Shown here in pieces: positions 13,502 to 62,390 of a stretch of DNA of 64,000 nt. Made by a program: the position numbers and the translations under genes. Numbering within the stretch: position 1 is the first letter of the stretch; each line of letters starts with the position of its first letter. The stretch is from Eledone cirrhosa. Taxonomy: Eukaryota. The notes beneath the pieces are model-generated. The model made no database searches. It saw only the letters and a program-made list of their open reading frames with translations, and was not told the origin of the DNA. The stretch lies in NCBI GenBank assembly GCA_964016885.1, contig OZ024764.1:4588001-4652000 (forward strand). Reading direction: 5' to 3'.

Positions 13502-13674
13502 GTGTTGGCATGGCCATGCGTACCATGGCCAACATGGCCACCCCGACCCAGGAGATCACAGTGAATGGAGAGGAATGGCACATCAAGACTTCAACTACGT
13601 TTAAGACAACCGAAATCAGTTTTAAGATCTTGGAGGAGTTCGATGAGACAACTGCTGACGGAAGGAATGTAAAG
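13502..13674 (+). CDS. FABP: fatty acid-binding protein (FABP/iLBP family), exon 2
   Basis: ag|GTGTTGGC...GTAAAG|gtgaca, 173 nt, phase 1 to 0, as in canonical FABP genes. Encodes GVGMAMRTMANMATPTQEITVNGEEWHIKTSTTFKTTEISFKILEEFDETTADGRNVK. Confidence 0.95.
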
Positions 13675-16673: not shown

Positions 16674-16772
16674 ACCACCTGTTCGGTTGATGGTAACACG
16701 ATGACCCAGACCCAGAAGGGATCACACGACAGTGTTTTGACCAGGGAGTTGAAAGACGACAAAATGGTTATG
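16674..16772 (+). CDS. FABP: FABP exon 3
   Basis: cag|ACCACC...GTTATG|gtaagt, 99 nt, phase 0/0. Encodes TTCSVDGNTMTQTQKGSHDSVLTRELKDDKMVM. Confidence 0.93.
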
Positions 16773-27093: not shown

Positions 27094-27293
27094 NNNNNNN
27101 NNNNNNNNNNNNNNNNNNNNNNNNNNNNNNNNNNNNNNNNNNNNNNNNNNNNNNNNNNNNNNNNNNNNNNNNNNNNNNNNNNNNNNNNNNNNNNNNNNNN
27201 NNNNNNNNNNNNNNNNNNNNNNNNNNNNNNNNNNNNNNNNNNNNNNNNNNNNNNNNNNNNNNNNNNNNNNNNNNNNNNNNNNNNNNNNNNNNN
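27094..27293. other. assembly gap (200 N)
   Basis: Run of n. Confidence 1.
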
Positions 27294-33000: not shown

Positions 33001-34094
33001 TGCACATATATATATATATATTACACACACATATATATATGTATGTGTGTGAATTTAATAAGGTATTTCAATGGATTTATTTATTTACTTTGGTACGAAA
33101 CTACAGGTGTGAGACATATGAACGAACGGAATAGTGATCTAGCTCTGTATCTCTCTTATACAACATGGCTACCGTCTCTGAAACATGTCCGTGATGTTGT
33201 TACTGTGATATCTCTTCTCAAGGACGAGGCACTAGGCTGCTTCTTTGGCTGGCTTCCTTGTGTGTGTGTGTGAGGGACCCATCCTCCACCACACGCACCC
33301 TTACAGTAATACAAACGAAAGTCGCTGCTCCGGAAGGGGTTTTATGACAAATATATATATATATATAGCCGCTGAAAGGAGTAAATCCAAGGACAAGACA
33401 GACTTTGTTTGGCCGGTGTTGCTGGGTTTCCTTCTGCTGGGGAGAAAGACCCTTTACCCCTGTCTATACATCCCAGGAAGAAGGAGCTGGCTCCGGGGAT
33501 AACCCTTCATCCATTAAGGACAACATACACGGAACTTCTGGCCGGTGTTTGGTTAGTCAACTCCTGGTGTAGAGGGATACCCGCCTCTTGTGTAACTCTG
33601 TAGATATTACAGAAAGATCGAATCCCGTTCCGGACGGAAGGAGTTGCAAGGGGACAGACAATATATGTAGATTAGCCCCTCCAATCACCAACGACAACAT
33701 ACCCCGAGAACTTGACCGGTGTTCCTGGAATATCTCTTACATCAGACAGCCCCCCCCCCCCCCCAGGGGTCACAGCCAGGTGTTGGATATAAACTCCAAG
33801 GACATAATAGTTGGGTGTAGCAGGATAAAGTTGGGTATCGTGGAGTAGCCCGATCCCCCCCTTTTCGGCCCCCGAGGGGTTTCACAGCTGTTGTCCTCCA
33901 TCAATATCCACCACAAGGTCAGTCAACTTTTTTTATAATCTTTCTCCCTTCTCTGATTTTTAATGATGTATCGTAATTATATAGTATATATACATTATAT
34001 ATATATATATATATATATACACTATAAGTATATAAACTATATATATATACATACACTATATATATACATTGTATATATATATAATGGTTTCTTA

Positions 34095-37211: not shown

Positions 37212-37251
<40 letters not shown>

Positions 37252-37478
37252 AACGAGTAGGACCCCGACGGCTGAGCTCAAGCCGTTTCGACGGCTAATT
37301 CTGGACGAATTAGTCTAATTCAGTCCAGAATTAGCCGTCGAAACGGCTTGAGCTCAGCCGTCGGGGTCCTACTCGTTCCTATATATATATATATATTATA
37401 TATAGTGACGAAACATAAGTCAATTGCATGAACTCATAATCCTTTATTTACTGCTATATATATTTCGATGATAGCCAT
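37143..37478. repeat. second long inverted repeat abutting the first
   Basis: tggctatcatcgaaatatatatagcagtaaataaagg...ggaacgagtaggaccccgacggctgagc is mirrored around ~37311-37318. Confidence 0.9.
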
Positions 37479-38657: not shown

Positions 38658-39040
38658 TGTAGGAGTGGGGTCCCTATCATTAAAAGTCCTGAAAAAGCAC
38701 CTATGAGATAGCTCAGACTTATGTAGGTTGAGCTGGCCTCCTACAAGGCTGTCTGTCTCTCATAGGAGGTTTCCTGGTTGTTGTAATGATAGGGACCCCA
38801 GTCCTATCATGAAAAACCTGAAATGAAGCAACTGGCTCAAGAATACAATGTGCTGCCTGACCTAAGGTTTGATCTTATGACCTTATGTTTATGAGCGCAG
38901 CACACTAACCATTGAACCTACACTACACCACCACCTCACACTACAACACCACCACCACACACTACTACACCACCATCACAATACACCACCACCACCATGC
39001 ACTACAACACCACCACGCACTACAACACCACCATTGCATA

Positions 39041-40279
39041 TATTCAGATAAATAATATCATATCTACCCCACCTCCAAACCTGGCCCTTTATAACCCCTA
39101 AAATCTCTATTTCAGATGTATCGCCATATCTACCCCACCTCCAAACCTGGCCCTTTATAACCCCTAAAATCTCTATTTCAGATGTATCGTCATATCTACC
39201 CCACCTCCAAACCTGGCCCTTTATAACCCCTAAAATCTCTATTTCAGATGTATCGTCATATCTACCCCCACCTCCAAACCTGGCCCTTTATAACCCCTAA
39301 AATCTCTATTTCAGATGTATCGCCATATCAACCCCACCTCCAAACCTGGCCCTTTATAACTCCTAAAATCTCTATTTCAGATGTATCGTCATATCTACCC
39401 CCACTTCCAAACCTGGCCCTTTATAACCCCTAAAATCTCTATTTCAGATGTATCGTCATATCTACCCCCACCTCCAAACCTGGCCCTTTATAACCCCTAA
39501 AATCTCTATTTCAGATGTATCGTCATATCTACCCCCACTTCCAAACCTGGCCCTTTATAACCCCTAAAATCTCTATTTCAGATGTATCGCCATATCTACC
39601 CCACCTCCAAACCTGGCCCTTTATAACCCCTAAAATCTCTATTTCAGATGTATTGTCATATCTACCCCCACCTCCAAACCTGGCCCTTTATAACCCCTAA
39701 AATCTTTATTTCAGATGTATCGCCATATCAACCCTACCTCCAAACCTGGCCCTTTATAACTCCTAAAATCTCTATTTCAGATGTATCGTCATATCTACCC
39801 CCACTTCCAAACCTGGCCCTTTATAACCCCTAAAATCTCTATTTCAGATGTATCATCATATCTACCCCCACCTCCAAACCTGGCCCTTTATGACCCCTAA
39901 AATCTCTATTTCAGATGTATCGTCATATCTACCCCCACTTCCAAACCTGGCCCTTTATAACCCCTAAAATCTCTATTTCAGATGTATCGTCATATCTACC
40001 CCCACTTCCAAACCTGGCCCTTTATAACCCCTAAAATCTCTATTTCAGATGTATCGCCATATCTACCCCACCTCCAAACCTGGCCCTTTATAACCCCTAA
40101 AATCTCTATTTCAGATGTATCGCCATATCTACCCCACCTCCAAACCTGGCCCTTTATAACCCCTAAAATCTCTATTTCAGATGTATCGTCATATCTACCC
40201 CCACTTCCAAACCTGGCCCTTTATAACCCCTAAAATCTCTATTTCAGATGTATCGCCATATCTACCTTACCTCCAAACA
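39041..40279 (+). repeat. 66/67-bp tandem repeat containing the AFG3L2 acceptor and exon start (18 copies of tttcag|ATGTA)
   Basis: The AG ends at 39115, 39181, 39247 ... 40114, 40180, 40247. Confidence 0.93.
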
Positions 40280-40434
40280 TGTAACTGCTCCACCACGAAC
40301 ATTGTGGTCCCTAATGAAGGACTGGCCTCTGCTACGCAACAGCAATGTACCAAAGGGTTTTGAGAAATACTTCCCTGGAGCTAAGAAGACCCCACCACCA
40401 AAAGAGGCCCCACCCAGTGGTGCCAAACCAAAAG
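40248..40434 (+). CDS. AFG3L2: AFG3-like protein 2 (m-AAA protease), first coding exon visible
   Basis: cag|ATG...AAAG|gtatac. Encodes MYRHIYLTSKHVTAPPRTLWSLMKDWPLLRNSNVPKGFEKYFPGAKK...; PKGFEKYFP is the conserved AFG3L2 N-terminal motif. The ATG may be the start or an internal Met. Confidence 0.85.
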
Positions 40435-40536
40435 GTATACTTTTCTCTCTCTCTCTCTCTCTCTCCCTATTTAATCCACAAACTCCCTTTATTTCATGTT
40501 TTTTCAAGGTTTGATATTTTCTATCCTTTTCATATT

Positions 40537-42945: not shown

Positions 42946-43024
42946 AGGGCCGAAAGTTACCCCCACCTCCCTTCAAACCATCCGGTGGGGACAAGAAGAT
43001 GGAGTTTTCATTCAGCTTCAACAA
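42946..43024 (+). CDS. AFG3L2: AFG3L2 exon
   Basis: Polypyrimidine tract then tag|AGGGCC...AACAA|gtaagt, 79 nt, phase 1 to 2, which links the flanking exons in frame. Encodes (E)GRKLPPPPFKPSGGDKKMEFSFSFN(K). Confidence 0.8.
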
Positions 43025-50723: not shown

Positions 50724-50886
50724 AAGCAACCGTGGCCCCTTTATGGATCCTAATGACCCAAACAGTCGTATCCTGCTGGGAGTGTTGACTGGAGTGGGTC
50801 TGGTCAGTTTAGTGGGTCTTTACCAGACGCAGTACAGAGAGATCACCTGGAAGGAGTTCCTGTCTCAGCATCTAACACGAAATACG
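50724..50886 (+). CDS. AFG3L2: AFG3L2 exon (TM1 and start of the intermembrane domain)
   Basis: cag|AAGCAAC...AATACG|gtgagt, phase 2 to 0. Encodes SNRGPFMDPNDPNSRILLGVLTGVGLVSLVGLYQTQYREITWKEFLSQHLTRNT, including the REITWKEF motif. Confidence 0.93.
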
Positions 50887-50989
50887 GTGAGTACGATGGG
50901 GCGGGGCTGGCGTGGTGTTGTGGGGTGGGGCTGGCACGGTGCTGGAGGGGGCGGGTGAAGGAGGGTGGCATGGTGTTGGGTGTGGTGTT

Positions 50990-52085
50990 GTAGTAGTATT
51001 GTGTAGAGTTGTAGTGTAGTGTAGGTGGAGTGTAGTGCAGGTGGAGTGTAGTGTTGTGTAGGTGGAGTGTGGTGTAGTGCAGGTGGAGTTGTGGTGTAGT
51101 GTAGTGCAGGTGGAGTGTGGTGTAGTATAGTGCAGGTGGAGTTGTAGTGTAGTGCAGGTGGAGTTGAGTTGTGGTGTAGTGTAGTATAGTGTAGGTGGAG
51201 TGTGGTGTAGTGTAGTATAGTGCAGGTGGAGTGTGGTGTAGTGTAGTATAGTGCAGGTGGAGTGTGGTGTGGGGTAGTGTAGTGCAGGTGGAGTTGTGGT
51301 GTAGTGTAGTATAGTGTAGGTGGAGTGTGGTGTAGTGTAGTATAGTGCAGGTGGAGCGTGGTGTGGGGTAGTGTAGTGCAGGTGGATTGTGGTGTAGTGT
51401 AGTATAGTGTAGGTGGAGTGTGGTGTGGTGTAGTGAAGGTGGAGTTGCGGTGTAATATAGTGCAGGTGGAGTGTGGTGTAGTGTAGTGCAGGTGGAGTTG
51501 CAGTGTAGTGTAGTGCAGGTGGAGTGTGGTGTAGTGTAGTGCAGGTGGAGTGTAGTATAGTGCAGGTGGAGTGTGGTGTAGTGTAGTGCAGGTGGAGTGT
51601 GGTGTAGTGCAGGTGGAGTGTGGTGTAGTGTAGTATAGTGCAGGTGGAGCGTGGTGTGGTGTAGTGCAGGTGGAGTGTGGGGTAGTGTAGTGCAGGTGGA
51701 TTGCGGTGTAGTGTAGTATAGTGTAGGTGGAGTGTGGTGTGGTGTAGTGAAGGTGGAGTTGCGGTGTAATATAGTGCAGGTGGAGTGTGGTGTAGTGTAG
51801 TGCAGGTGGAGTTGCAGTGTAGTGTAGTGTAGTGCAGGTGGAGTGTGGTGTAGTGTAGTGCAGGTGGAGTGTGGTGTAGTGTAGTGCAGGTGGAGTTGCA
51901 GTGTAGTATAGTGTAGTGCAGGTGGAGTGTGGTGTAGTGTAGTGCAGGTGGAGTGTAGTGCAGGTGGAGTTGCAGTGTAGTGTAGTGTAGTGCAGGTGGA
52001 GTGTGGTGTAGTGTAGTGCAGGTGGAGTGTGGTGTAGTGTAGTGCAGGTGGAGTGTGGTGTAGTGTAGTGCAGGTGGAGCGTGGT
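50990..52085. repeat. GTGTA / GTGCAGGTGGA degenerate repeat
   Basis: Seen directly. Confidence 0.9.
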
Positions 52086-52207
52086 ATATGTGTATATGTC
52101 CATAGGTTGAGAAGCTGGAAGTGGTATACAATGTATATATAGTATTATGTATGTATGTATGTATGTGTATAATATATATATAGTATGTATACAATGTATG
52201 TATGTAT

Positions 52208-52239
<32 letters not shown>

Positions 52240-52503
52240 TTTCTGTGTCATGTCCATAGGTTGAGAAGCTGGAAGTGGTATACAATGTATATATAGTATT
52301 ATGTATGTATGTGTATAATATATATATAGTATGTATACAATGTATGTATGTATGTATGTGTGTATATATATATATATATATTTTCTGTGTCATGTCCATA
52401 GGTTGAGAAGCTGGAAGTGGTATACAATGTATATATAGTATTATGTATGTATGTATGTATGTGTATAATATATATATAGTATGTATACAATGTATGTATG
52501 TAT

Positions 52504-52535
<32 letters not shown>

Positions 52536-52658
52536 TTTCTGTGTCATGTCCATAGGTTGAGAAGCTGGAAGTGGTATACAATGTATATATAGTATGTATG
52601 TATGTATGTATGTATGTGTATAATATATATATAGTATGTATACAATGTATGTATGTAT

Positions 52659-52690
<32 letters not shown>

Positions 52691-53759
52691 TTTCTGTGTC
52701 ATGTCCATAGGTTGAGAAGCTGGAAGTGGTATACAATGTATATATAGTATTATGTATGTATGTATGTATGTATGTATGTGTATAATATATATATAGTATG
52801 TATACAATGTATGTATGTATGTATGTGTGTATATATATATATATATATATTTTCTGTGTCATGTCCATAGGTTGAGAAGCTGGAAGTGGTATACAATGTA
52901 TATATAGTATTATGTATGTATGTATGTATGTATGTGTATAATATATATATAGTATGTATACAATGTATGTATGTATGTATGTGTGTATATATATATATAT
53001 ATATATTTTCTGTGTCATGTCCCTAGGTTGAGAAGCTGGAAGTGGTATACAATGTATATATAGTATGTATGTATGTATGTATGTATGTATGTGTATAATA
53101 TATATATAGTATGTATACAATGTATGTATGTATGTATGTGTGTATATATATATATATATATATTTTCTGTGTCATGTCCCTAGGTTGAGAAGCTGGAAGT
53201 GGTATACAATGTATATATAGTATTATGTATGTATGTATGTATGTATGTGTATAATATATATATAGTATGTATACAATGTATGTATGTATGTATGTGTGTA
53301 TGTATATATATATATATATATATTTTCTGTGTCATGTCCATAGGTTGAGAAGCTGGAAGTGGTATACAATGTATATATAGTATTATGTATGTATGTATGT
53401 ATGTGTATAATATATATATAGTATGTATACAATGTATGTATGTATGTATGTGTGTATATATATATATATATATATTTTCTGTGTCATGTCCATAGGTTGA
53501 GAAGCTGGAAGTGGTATACAATGTATATATAGTATGTATGTATGTATGTATGTATGTATGTGTATAATATATATATAGTATGTATACAATGTATGTATGT
53601 ATGTGTGTATATATATATATATATATATTTTCTGTGTCATGTCCCTAGGTTGAGAAGCTGGAAGTGGTATACAATGTATATATAGTATGTATGTATGTAT
53701 GTATGTATGTATGTATGTGTATAATATATATATAGTATGTATACAATGTATGTATGTAT

Positions 53760-53795
<36 letters not shown>

Positions 53796-53985
53796 TTTCT
53801 GTGTCATGTCCCTAGGTTGAGAAGCTGGAAGTGGTATACAATGTATATATAGTATTATGTATGTATGTATGTGTATAATATATATATAGTATGTATACAA
53901 TGTATGTATGTATGTATGTGTGTGTATATATATATATATATATATTTTCTGTGTCATGTCCCTAGGTTGAGAAGCTGGAAGTGGT
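52081..53985 (+). repeat. ~142-167-bp tandem repeat containing the AFG3L2 acceptor and the first 20 exon nt (13 copies)
   Basis: atgtcc(a/c)tag|GTTGAGAAGCTGGAAGTGGT, with AG ending at 52105, 52259, 52401, 52555, 52710, 52870, 53026, 53183, 53343, 53495, 53648, 53815, 53965. Confidence 0.93.
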
Positions 53986-54040
53986 CAACAAGAAGTGGGT
54001 CCGAGTAAAGATGATGCCAGGATCTCAGGTGGACAGTTCT
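53966..54040 (+). CDS. AFG3L2: AFG3L2 exon
   Basis: tag|GTTGAG...AGTTCT|gtaagt, 75 nt, phase 0/0. Encodes VEKLEVVNKKWVRVKMMPGSQVDSS (compare vertebrate VDRLEVVNKRFVRV). Confidence 0.93.
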
Positions 54041-58019: not shown

Positions 58020-58144
58020 AGCATCATATGGTTTAACATTGGAAGTGTGGAGGCTTTTGAAAGGAACCTGGAAAACGCTCAGTTAGAGATGAATATTGAA
58101 CCTGCGAACTTTGTCAATGTTGTCTACAGGACAGAAACAGAATT
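58020..58144 (+). CDS. AFG3L2: AFG3L2 exon
   Basis: cag|AGCATC...GAATT|gtgagt, 125 nt, phase 0 to 2. Encodes SIIWFNIGSVEAFERNLENAQLEMNIEPANFVNVVYRTETE, including the WFNIGSVxxFERNL motif. Confidence 0.96.
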
Positions 58145-62302: not shown

Positions 62303-62390
62303 GTCATCTCTAGCCTACTCAGCCCTCAACATCATCCTACCTATCGCCATATTGGTCTGGATAATCAGAAGATCATCCAACTTACTTCAG
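62303..62390 (+). CDS. AFG3L2: AFG3L2 exon (TM2)
   Basis: cag|GTCATC...CTTCAG|gtttgt, phase 2 to 0. Encodes (L)SSLAYSALNIILPIAILVWIIRRSSNLLQ, a hydrophobic helix followed by IRR as in AFG3L2. The gene continues beyond the window. Confidence 0.85.

Follow-up and report, generated by a model that had tools for sequence, protein, structure and literature searches.

Our results indicate that the tandem array ahead of the 75-nt exon at 53966 in the AFG3L2 gene of the octopod Eledone cirrhosa is very probably a silent "mirage" minisatellite, whose copied acceptors are skipped in one spliced contig and which is likely to be neutral. A reading of the array as a set of microexons is not supported. Minisatellites of this kind are described from amphioxus, where tandem copies of an intron end and exon start show length instability and leave splicing undisturbed (PMC3087553, in part). 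The features of the window (the whole stretch of 64,000 nucleotides that was analyzed) that carry the argument are listed here.

33886..33917, + strand: upstream AFG3L2 exon, 3' end only, donor AAG gtcagt, joined to 40248 in contig X4
39058..40278, + strand: second mirage-type array, with 17 additional units of 66-67 nt, skipped in X4
40248..40434, + strand: AFG3L2 exon that follows the second array, with donor AAG gtatac
50724..50886, + strand: upstream AFG3L2 exon whose last base meets 53966 directly in spliced contig X4
50980..52085, + strand: GTGTA-type repeat, 5' part of the array-bearing intron
52086..53985, + strand: mirage-type tandem array, 12 extra copies, period 142-167 nt
53966..54040, + strand: real AFG3L2 exon, 75 nt, phase 0-0, donor TCT gtaagt, both sides joined in contig X4
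58020..58144, + strand: downstream AFG3L2 exon, which contig X4 connects to 54040

Six exons of the window (40248-40434, 42946-43024, 50724-50886, 53966-54040, 58020-58144, and 62303-62390) can be joined into a single open AFG3L2 frame, in which the donor at 50886 and the acceptor at 53966 are both in phase 0, and 12 more exons lie downstream beyond the window. The identity of the gene rests on a match to PDB 2lna, "AFG3-like protein 2" (E 1.7e-9), and on 94% identity of exon 50725-50886 to Octopus bimaculoides AFG3-like protein 2. The exon behind the array is the fifth when counted from the exon ending at 33917, which tblastn with orthologs missed and which was located through the loose end of an X4 contig matching the window. 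In the assembly, the frame entering exon 40248 has an upstream stop and no ATG, so that translation may begin with the ATG at 40248, which is the arrangement in O. bimaculoides isoform X2, a shorter form; alternatively, a homopolymer error may mask the frame upstream. Tandem repeats make up 68% of the window, the genome assembly amounts to 3.0 Gb, and the exons behind contig X4 are found at one locus each in it. A 200 N assembly gap (27094-27293) lies upstream of AFG3L2.

The first-pass annotation had placed 12 copies of the acceptor before the exon, and an exact search with the acceptor AG and the 20 exon bases that follow it bore this out with 13 matches, namely, the 12 copies (exon-starts at 52106, 52260, 52402, 52556, 52711, 52871, 53027, 53184, 53344, 53496, 53649, and 53816) and the real exon start at 53966. 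Thirteen exact 22-mers within 2 kb are far above chance. Each unit is made up of intron-end sequence containing (TA)n/(TATG)n microsatellites, followed by the pyrimidine tract, the AG, and the first 20 exon nucleotides, so that the tandem unit spans an intron/exon boundary of its host gene, as in a mirage. The splice signals (AG/GT) are retained in the copies: the AG is kept in 12/12, every copy reads AG GT at its acceptor, and the tract is full in all copies but the first, where it is truncated as had been reported. Unit turnover is visible as well, with 11 of the 12 units distinct and a single-unit state in all 11 fetched dispersed copies of the second array's region that are described below. 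Microsatellite lengths vary, and two small variants are interspersed among the units; once the microsatellites are collapsed, the units differ chiefly in a short indel within the spacer and in whether their acceptor reads ccatag or ccctag, the latter being common to copies 6, 7, 10, 11, and 12 and the real acceptor. The intron 5' of the exon has YAG triplets throughout its repeats, with 126 in 50887-52080 and 163 in the whole intron from 50887 to the 53966 exon.

That a single acceptor was mis-assembled into an array, an artefact that the earlier annotation had kept in view, has next to no probability in our estimate. The junction from exon start to spacer was found in all three DNA-like public runs (X1-X3, one sample, S1), in one case in a contig that is one letter off the reference stretch, and because these contigs run from the 20 exon bases into the spacer, the array unit exists outside the assembly. 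The distinctness of 11/12 units and their recurring variants likewise speak against mis-assembly of the unit itself; in favor of it are that X1-X3 may come from the same sample as the assembly and that the copy number rests on the assembly. An estimate of copy number from the depth of the X1-X3 junction contigs (67.5, 29, and 51.3) was dropped, as the single-copy stretch is uncovered and depth is no copy number here.

The evidence on splicing comes from the last of four public runs, none of which is on record as RNA. This run, X4 (second sample, S2; 88 million letters), is treated as transcript-derived on the grounds that exons are connected at GT-AG borders in its contigs and that no retrocopy of these exons is present in the assembly. 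A spliced X4 contig of 493 nt and depth 109 lies on 53965-54040 and also on 40405-40434, and its loose ends correspond to the terminal bases of exon 50724-50886 on one side and to the opening bases of exon 58020 on the other. Its length equals exactly 30+79+163+75+125+21 exon bases; therefore, no 18 nt were added, and the contig carries one VEKLEV and no array. The first-pass annotation had offered two alternatives, and the first of these, that all 12 copied acceptors are skipped and the array is neutral, is what is seen for the main transcript, in which X4 joins 50886 directly to 53966. At the second array, a 929-nt X4 contig joins 33917 directly to 40248. Regular mRNA is thus still made across both arrays in this one sample, which is represented by contigs, possibly from another individual than that of the assembly, which may or may not carry the array; contigs drop rare variants, so that low-level use of a copy may have gone unseen, and X4 represents the main form. 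No competing X4 contig was found at exon 53966, while side contigs (depth 10-29 versus 79-109) were kept at exon 40434, so that a common alternative form with a share like that of the side contigs would probably have appeared.

The second alternative of that annotation, (VEKLEV)n-variable isoforms, recursive splicing, or control coupled to nonsense-mediated decay, has no support: no such contig was found, the proposed donor falls below all 29 real donors scored, and the recursive site scores lowest. The elements that had suggested it are nevertheless real. An 18-nt phase-0 cassette is present in every copy (exact matches in 12/12), and the spacers between copies are of intron size, at 124-149 nt, if gtatac is counted as the donor. 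We scored donors with a small weight matrix built from 29 donors of the region, leaving out one at a time. The copy donor GTG gtatac reached -2.0, below 29/29 real donors (range, -0.4 to 9.3), and its predicted U1 duplex of -4.2 kcal/mol compares with -5.3 to -13.7 kcal/mol for real donors. The annotation had equated this gtatac with the donor after exon 40434; the hexamer is indeed shared, but the three flanking exon bases differ, and the real donor AAG gtatac scores 1.2 with a U1 duplex of -5.7, so that the argument from the same hexamer was rejected. Moreover, the GT of the cassette is the first two letters of a valine codon, GTC, and the same GT stands unused in the real exon (GTG gtcaac).

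A regulated ladder of neural microexons of the Srrm/eMIC type, in which one or more 18-nt cassettes would lengthen the intermembrane-space domain of this m-AAA protease by (VEKLEV)n, would draw on the AG, the 18 nt in phase 0, and the GT of each copy, on spacers of 124-149 nt, and on the unspecified tissue of X4. Fly regulated, eMIC-dependent microexons are short and can carry weak donors (PMC8797185, in part), and for this reason a weak donor alone is compatible with regulation. Yet the cassettes are absent from the X4 contig, the donor is weaker than 29/29, and the GT is inherited from a codon. According to the same source, eMIC targets are recognizable by a UGC close to the 3' site, by UCUC tracts, and by CUAAY branch points; the array has the very short frame-preserving cassette (18 nt, phase 0), but no TGC lies within 40 nt of the AG in 11/12 copies or at the real acceptor. 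Nor does any ortholog have a repeated motif: V[ED][KR]LEV is single in 9/9 aligned mollusc orthologs, no second such motif was found in 34 fetched proteins, and a related protein (P0002) that is translated through the unspliced orthologous intron has one motif and a 44-codon intron. Finally, the second array has no comparable 18-nt cassette and is skipped all the same. We consider it highly unlikely that in some tissue, most plausibly nervous, one or more copies are spliced in as a copy-number-tunable (VEKLEV)n microexon ladder, and slightly less likely again that such a ladder, regulated in the Srrm/eMIC manner, explains the array. Tissue-specific inclusion, if true, would illustrate how repeat expansion can give rise to microexons, and a true ladder would be a microexon programme nascent from a minisatellite.

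Removal of the intron in steps at the AG GT of each copy, through recursive or dual-specific sites, would lead to the same final mRNA, and because that mRNA would look identical, the X4 contig is equally compatible with it. Every copy has the AG GT, and AGGT sites in the repeats of human UBC and VCX3A are used (PMC10809524, in part). However, the donor that would be regenerated scores at the bottom of the range (ACG GTTGAG, -6.1; TAG GTTGAG, -6.2; real donors, -0.4 to 9.3 on the 29-donor matrix), so that by matrix scores AG GT does not regenerate a usable donor, and ACG GTTGAG also occurs in the mature mRNA, where it stays uncut. We give stepwise removal barely any credence.

A leaky and unregulated mirage, in which a neutral array would be used through one of its copies in a few percent of transcripts, is unlikely, though the least unlikely of the other readings. 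Such a leak could take the form of the 18-nt in-frame cassette, of a 73- or 86-nt frameshifting pseudo-exon, or of read-through, and it would be larger the more copies there are, reducing AFG3L2 dosage a little via nonsense-mediated decay. The two other GT sites of each unit, which would yield these frameshifting pseudo-exons, score within the range of real donors (+74, 2.8; +87, 4.1), copies 6, 7, 10, 11, and 12 share ccctag with the real acceptor, and in the human ABCA7 VNTR a copied donor leads to retention of one repeat unit (PMC5954066, in part). Against a leak, X4 is without a competing contig at exon 53966, though low-depth side contigs at exon 40434 survived.

For the silent mirage that we prefer, we propose that a tandem duplication across the AFG3L2 intron/exon border, perhaps first at a short microhomology (GTGGT is found at exon bases 16-20 and again on the left border of the array), was amplified by replication slippage or unequal crossing-over, with turnover of units following. 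The last acceptor would be chosen since it alone precedes the rest of the exon and the gtaagt donor 75 nt on; in other words, the real acceptor may win as the one site with an entire exon behind it and a donor whose intronic part matches U1 throughout. One caveat to this choice is that the +74 and +87 sites outscore the real exon's donor on the small matrix (1.5 for the latter), although their U1 pairing is much weaker (-3.7 and -3.5, respectively, versus -7.3). In 12/12 copies, translation that reads through encounters a stop after 20-63 codons, and nonsense-mediated decay would presumably remove such erroneous transcripts. RNA structure was considered as a cause of skipping and rejected, as the real acceptor, with a mean unpaired probability of 0.45 for tract plus AG, falls within the 0.25-0.57 of the copies. 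Arrays of this kind may persist through the combination of a repeat-rich region and an unchanged mRNA.

The second array, ahead of exon 40248, gives a view of how such a structure may have come about. Its unit joins 36 nt of intron end to about 30 nt resembling the start of exon 40248, and most copies open with an exon-like stretch that carries an ATG. When exon 40248-40434 served as the query, at least 39 other matches (40 scored of 76 candidates) were returned at 81-91% identity, and these include the following dispersed copies.

G000, contigs C5, C11, C1, and C3 and others: dispersed copies of the exon region, for example L115-L125 and L132-L141, several of them near contig ends

What was captured corresponds to window 38743-40456, that is, exon 40248-40434 with flanking intron. 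Each of the 11 dispersed copies that were fetched, with 89% identity to exon 40248, has a single acceptor unit versus 18 in the gene, which suggests that the second array expanded locally and recently; on the simplest reading of the sequences, it would have expanded in the gene after the region had been captured. The dispersed copies sit in a repeat of more than 18 kb that is 96-99% alike between most copies compared and that holds a Pif1-type helicase fragment (Pif1 2B-domain match) along with reverse-transcriptase-like fragments recognized by eye; the exon is often present in it a second time, in partial form. Because of the helicase fragment, we take this repeat to be likely a Helitron-like element with captured gene fragments. 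Low-depth X4 contigs hint that some of the dispersed copies are transcribed.

Acceptor arrays are present at 2/18 acceptors of AFG3L2, with none at its 17 donors, and were absent from 120 other exon matches (51 kinase, 16 neighboring, and 53 further loci), so that no genome-wide habit of acceptor arrays was found. Among the 51 kinase exon matches there were two single 14-16-mer recurrences, of which the one viewed is no clear tandem copy; the 16 neighboring exons include three with approximate borders and one low-complexity match; and the 53 further loci, where the borders of many of the 30 large kinase matches are not necessarily splice sites, gave one donor duplication and two single 14-mers. 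The donor duplication concerns an MCM-family exon at a repeat-rich locus (L111:1594-1767; G000:C21 near 10,901,000), where the last 40 exon bases and the donor are duplicated once in tandem as an 87-nt unit, a donor-side mirage. Border-spanning repeat events are thus uncommon, and the three found lie in repeat-rich DNA. Two AFG3L2 arrays versus 0/120 are more clustered than a uniform process predicts, in a small sample in which repeat density is unmatched, most of the 120 comparison loci being much less repeat-rich and 16 lying in the same repeat-rich region. A short degenerate likeness to a kinase exon end and donor was seen in the next intron at L063 (near 1440-1400, minus strand), and it may be an old decayed duplication or chance.

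Like the amphioxus mirages, the AFG3L2 array consists of head-to-tail copies of an intron 3' end and exon 5' start, keeps AG/GT, may occur with several arrays per gene, and leaves the regular mRNA to be made. Its unit of 142-167 nt is close to the 150-160 bp of BflGb6, which has 3-6 copies (PMC3087553, in part). The amphioxus hosts are Adh3, the globins BflGb6 and BflGb9, troponin C, and PGBD5, and these mirages are reported to leave splicing undisturbed (PMC3087553 and PMC3902484, both in part). In contrast to these, the host here is an octopod mollusc, there are 12 and 17 copies, the spacer is made of (TA)n/(TATG)n, and the junction leaves an in-frame 18-nt cassette with a weak GT. Human CBS 844ins68 is likewise a duplication of a 3' splice site where intron and exon meet, and the distal site is the one used, but there it is one extra copy, and G-runs between the sites promote distal choice (PMC1802585 and PMC4479818, both in part), whereas the AFG3L2 spacers are AT-rich microsatellites without G-runs. 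The human F7 IVS7 37-bp VNTR and ABCA7 intron 18 25-bp VNTR also hold the real splice site within the unit and thus present a row of identical pseudo-sites, which are described as silent in F7 (PMC1557585, in part) and slightly leaky in ABCA7 (PMC5954066, in part); both repeat the donor, while the array described here repeats the acceptor. Units containing AG GT are also known from the dual-specific AGGT repeats of human UBC and VCX3A (Rogers intron-gain model), where AG GT is a donor inside coding repeats (PMC10809524, in part), unlike the AFG3L2 AG GT, which has a very poor donor score and whose copies lie inside an existing intron at a position conserved in relatives. A literature search of limited coverage returned no relevant paper on mirages in octopus or other cephalopods or on octopus intronic minisatellites.

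Our findings extend mirage minisatellites to a cephalopod, which is a modest result. Since a mobile element has preserved the single-unit state of its region, the second array offers a rare before-and-after view, and 12-17 near-identical acceptors before a constitutive exon amount to a natural test of how the spliceosome chooses the last among many equal 3' splice sites.

The surroundings of AFG3L2 are repeat-rich in other ways. Minisatellites fill the introns of a fatty-acid-binding-protein-like gene with exons at 13502-13674 (a Pfam Lipocalin match) and 16674-16772, both on the + strand. Near-perfect inverted repeats of 60-100 nt occur at 37250-37380 of the window and in L003, and longer fold-backs recur in the introns of the region. 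About 34-78 kb past the window end lies, on the minus strand, a multi-exon gene (L004-L008) that is presumably TRP channel-like, and the 14 exons checked in it have no acceptor arrays.
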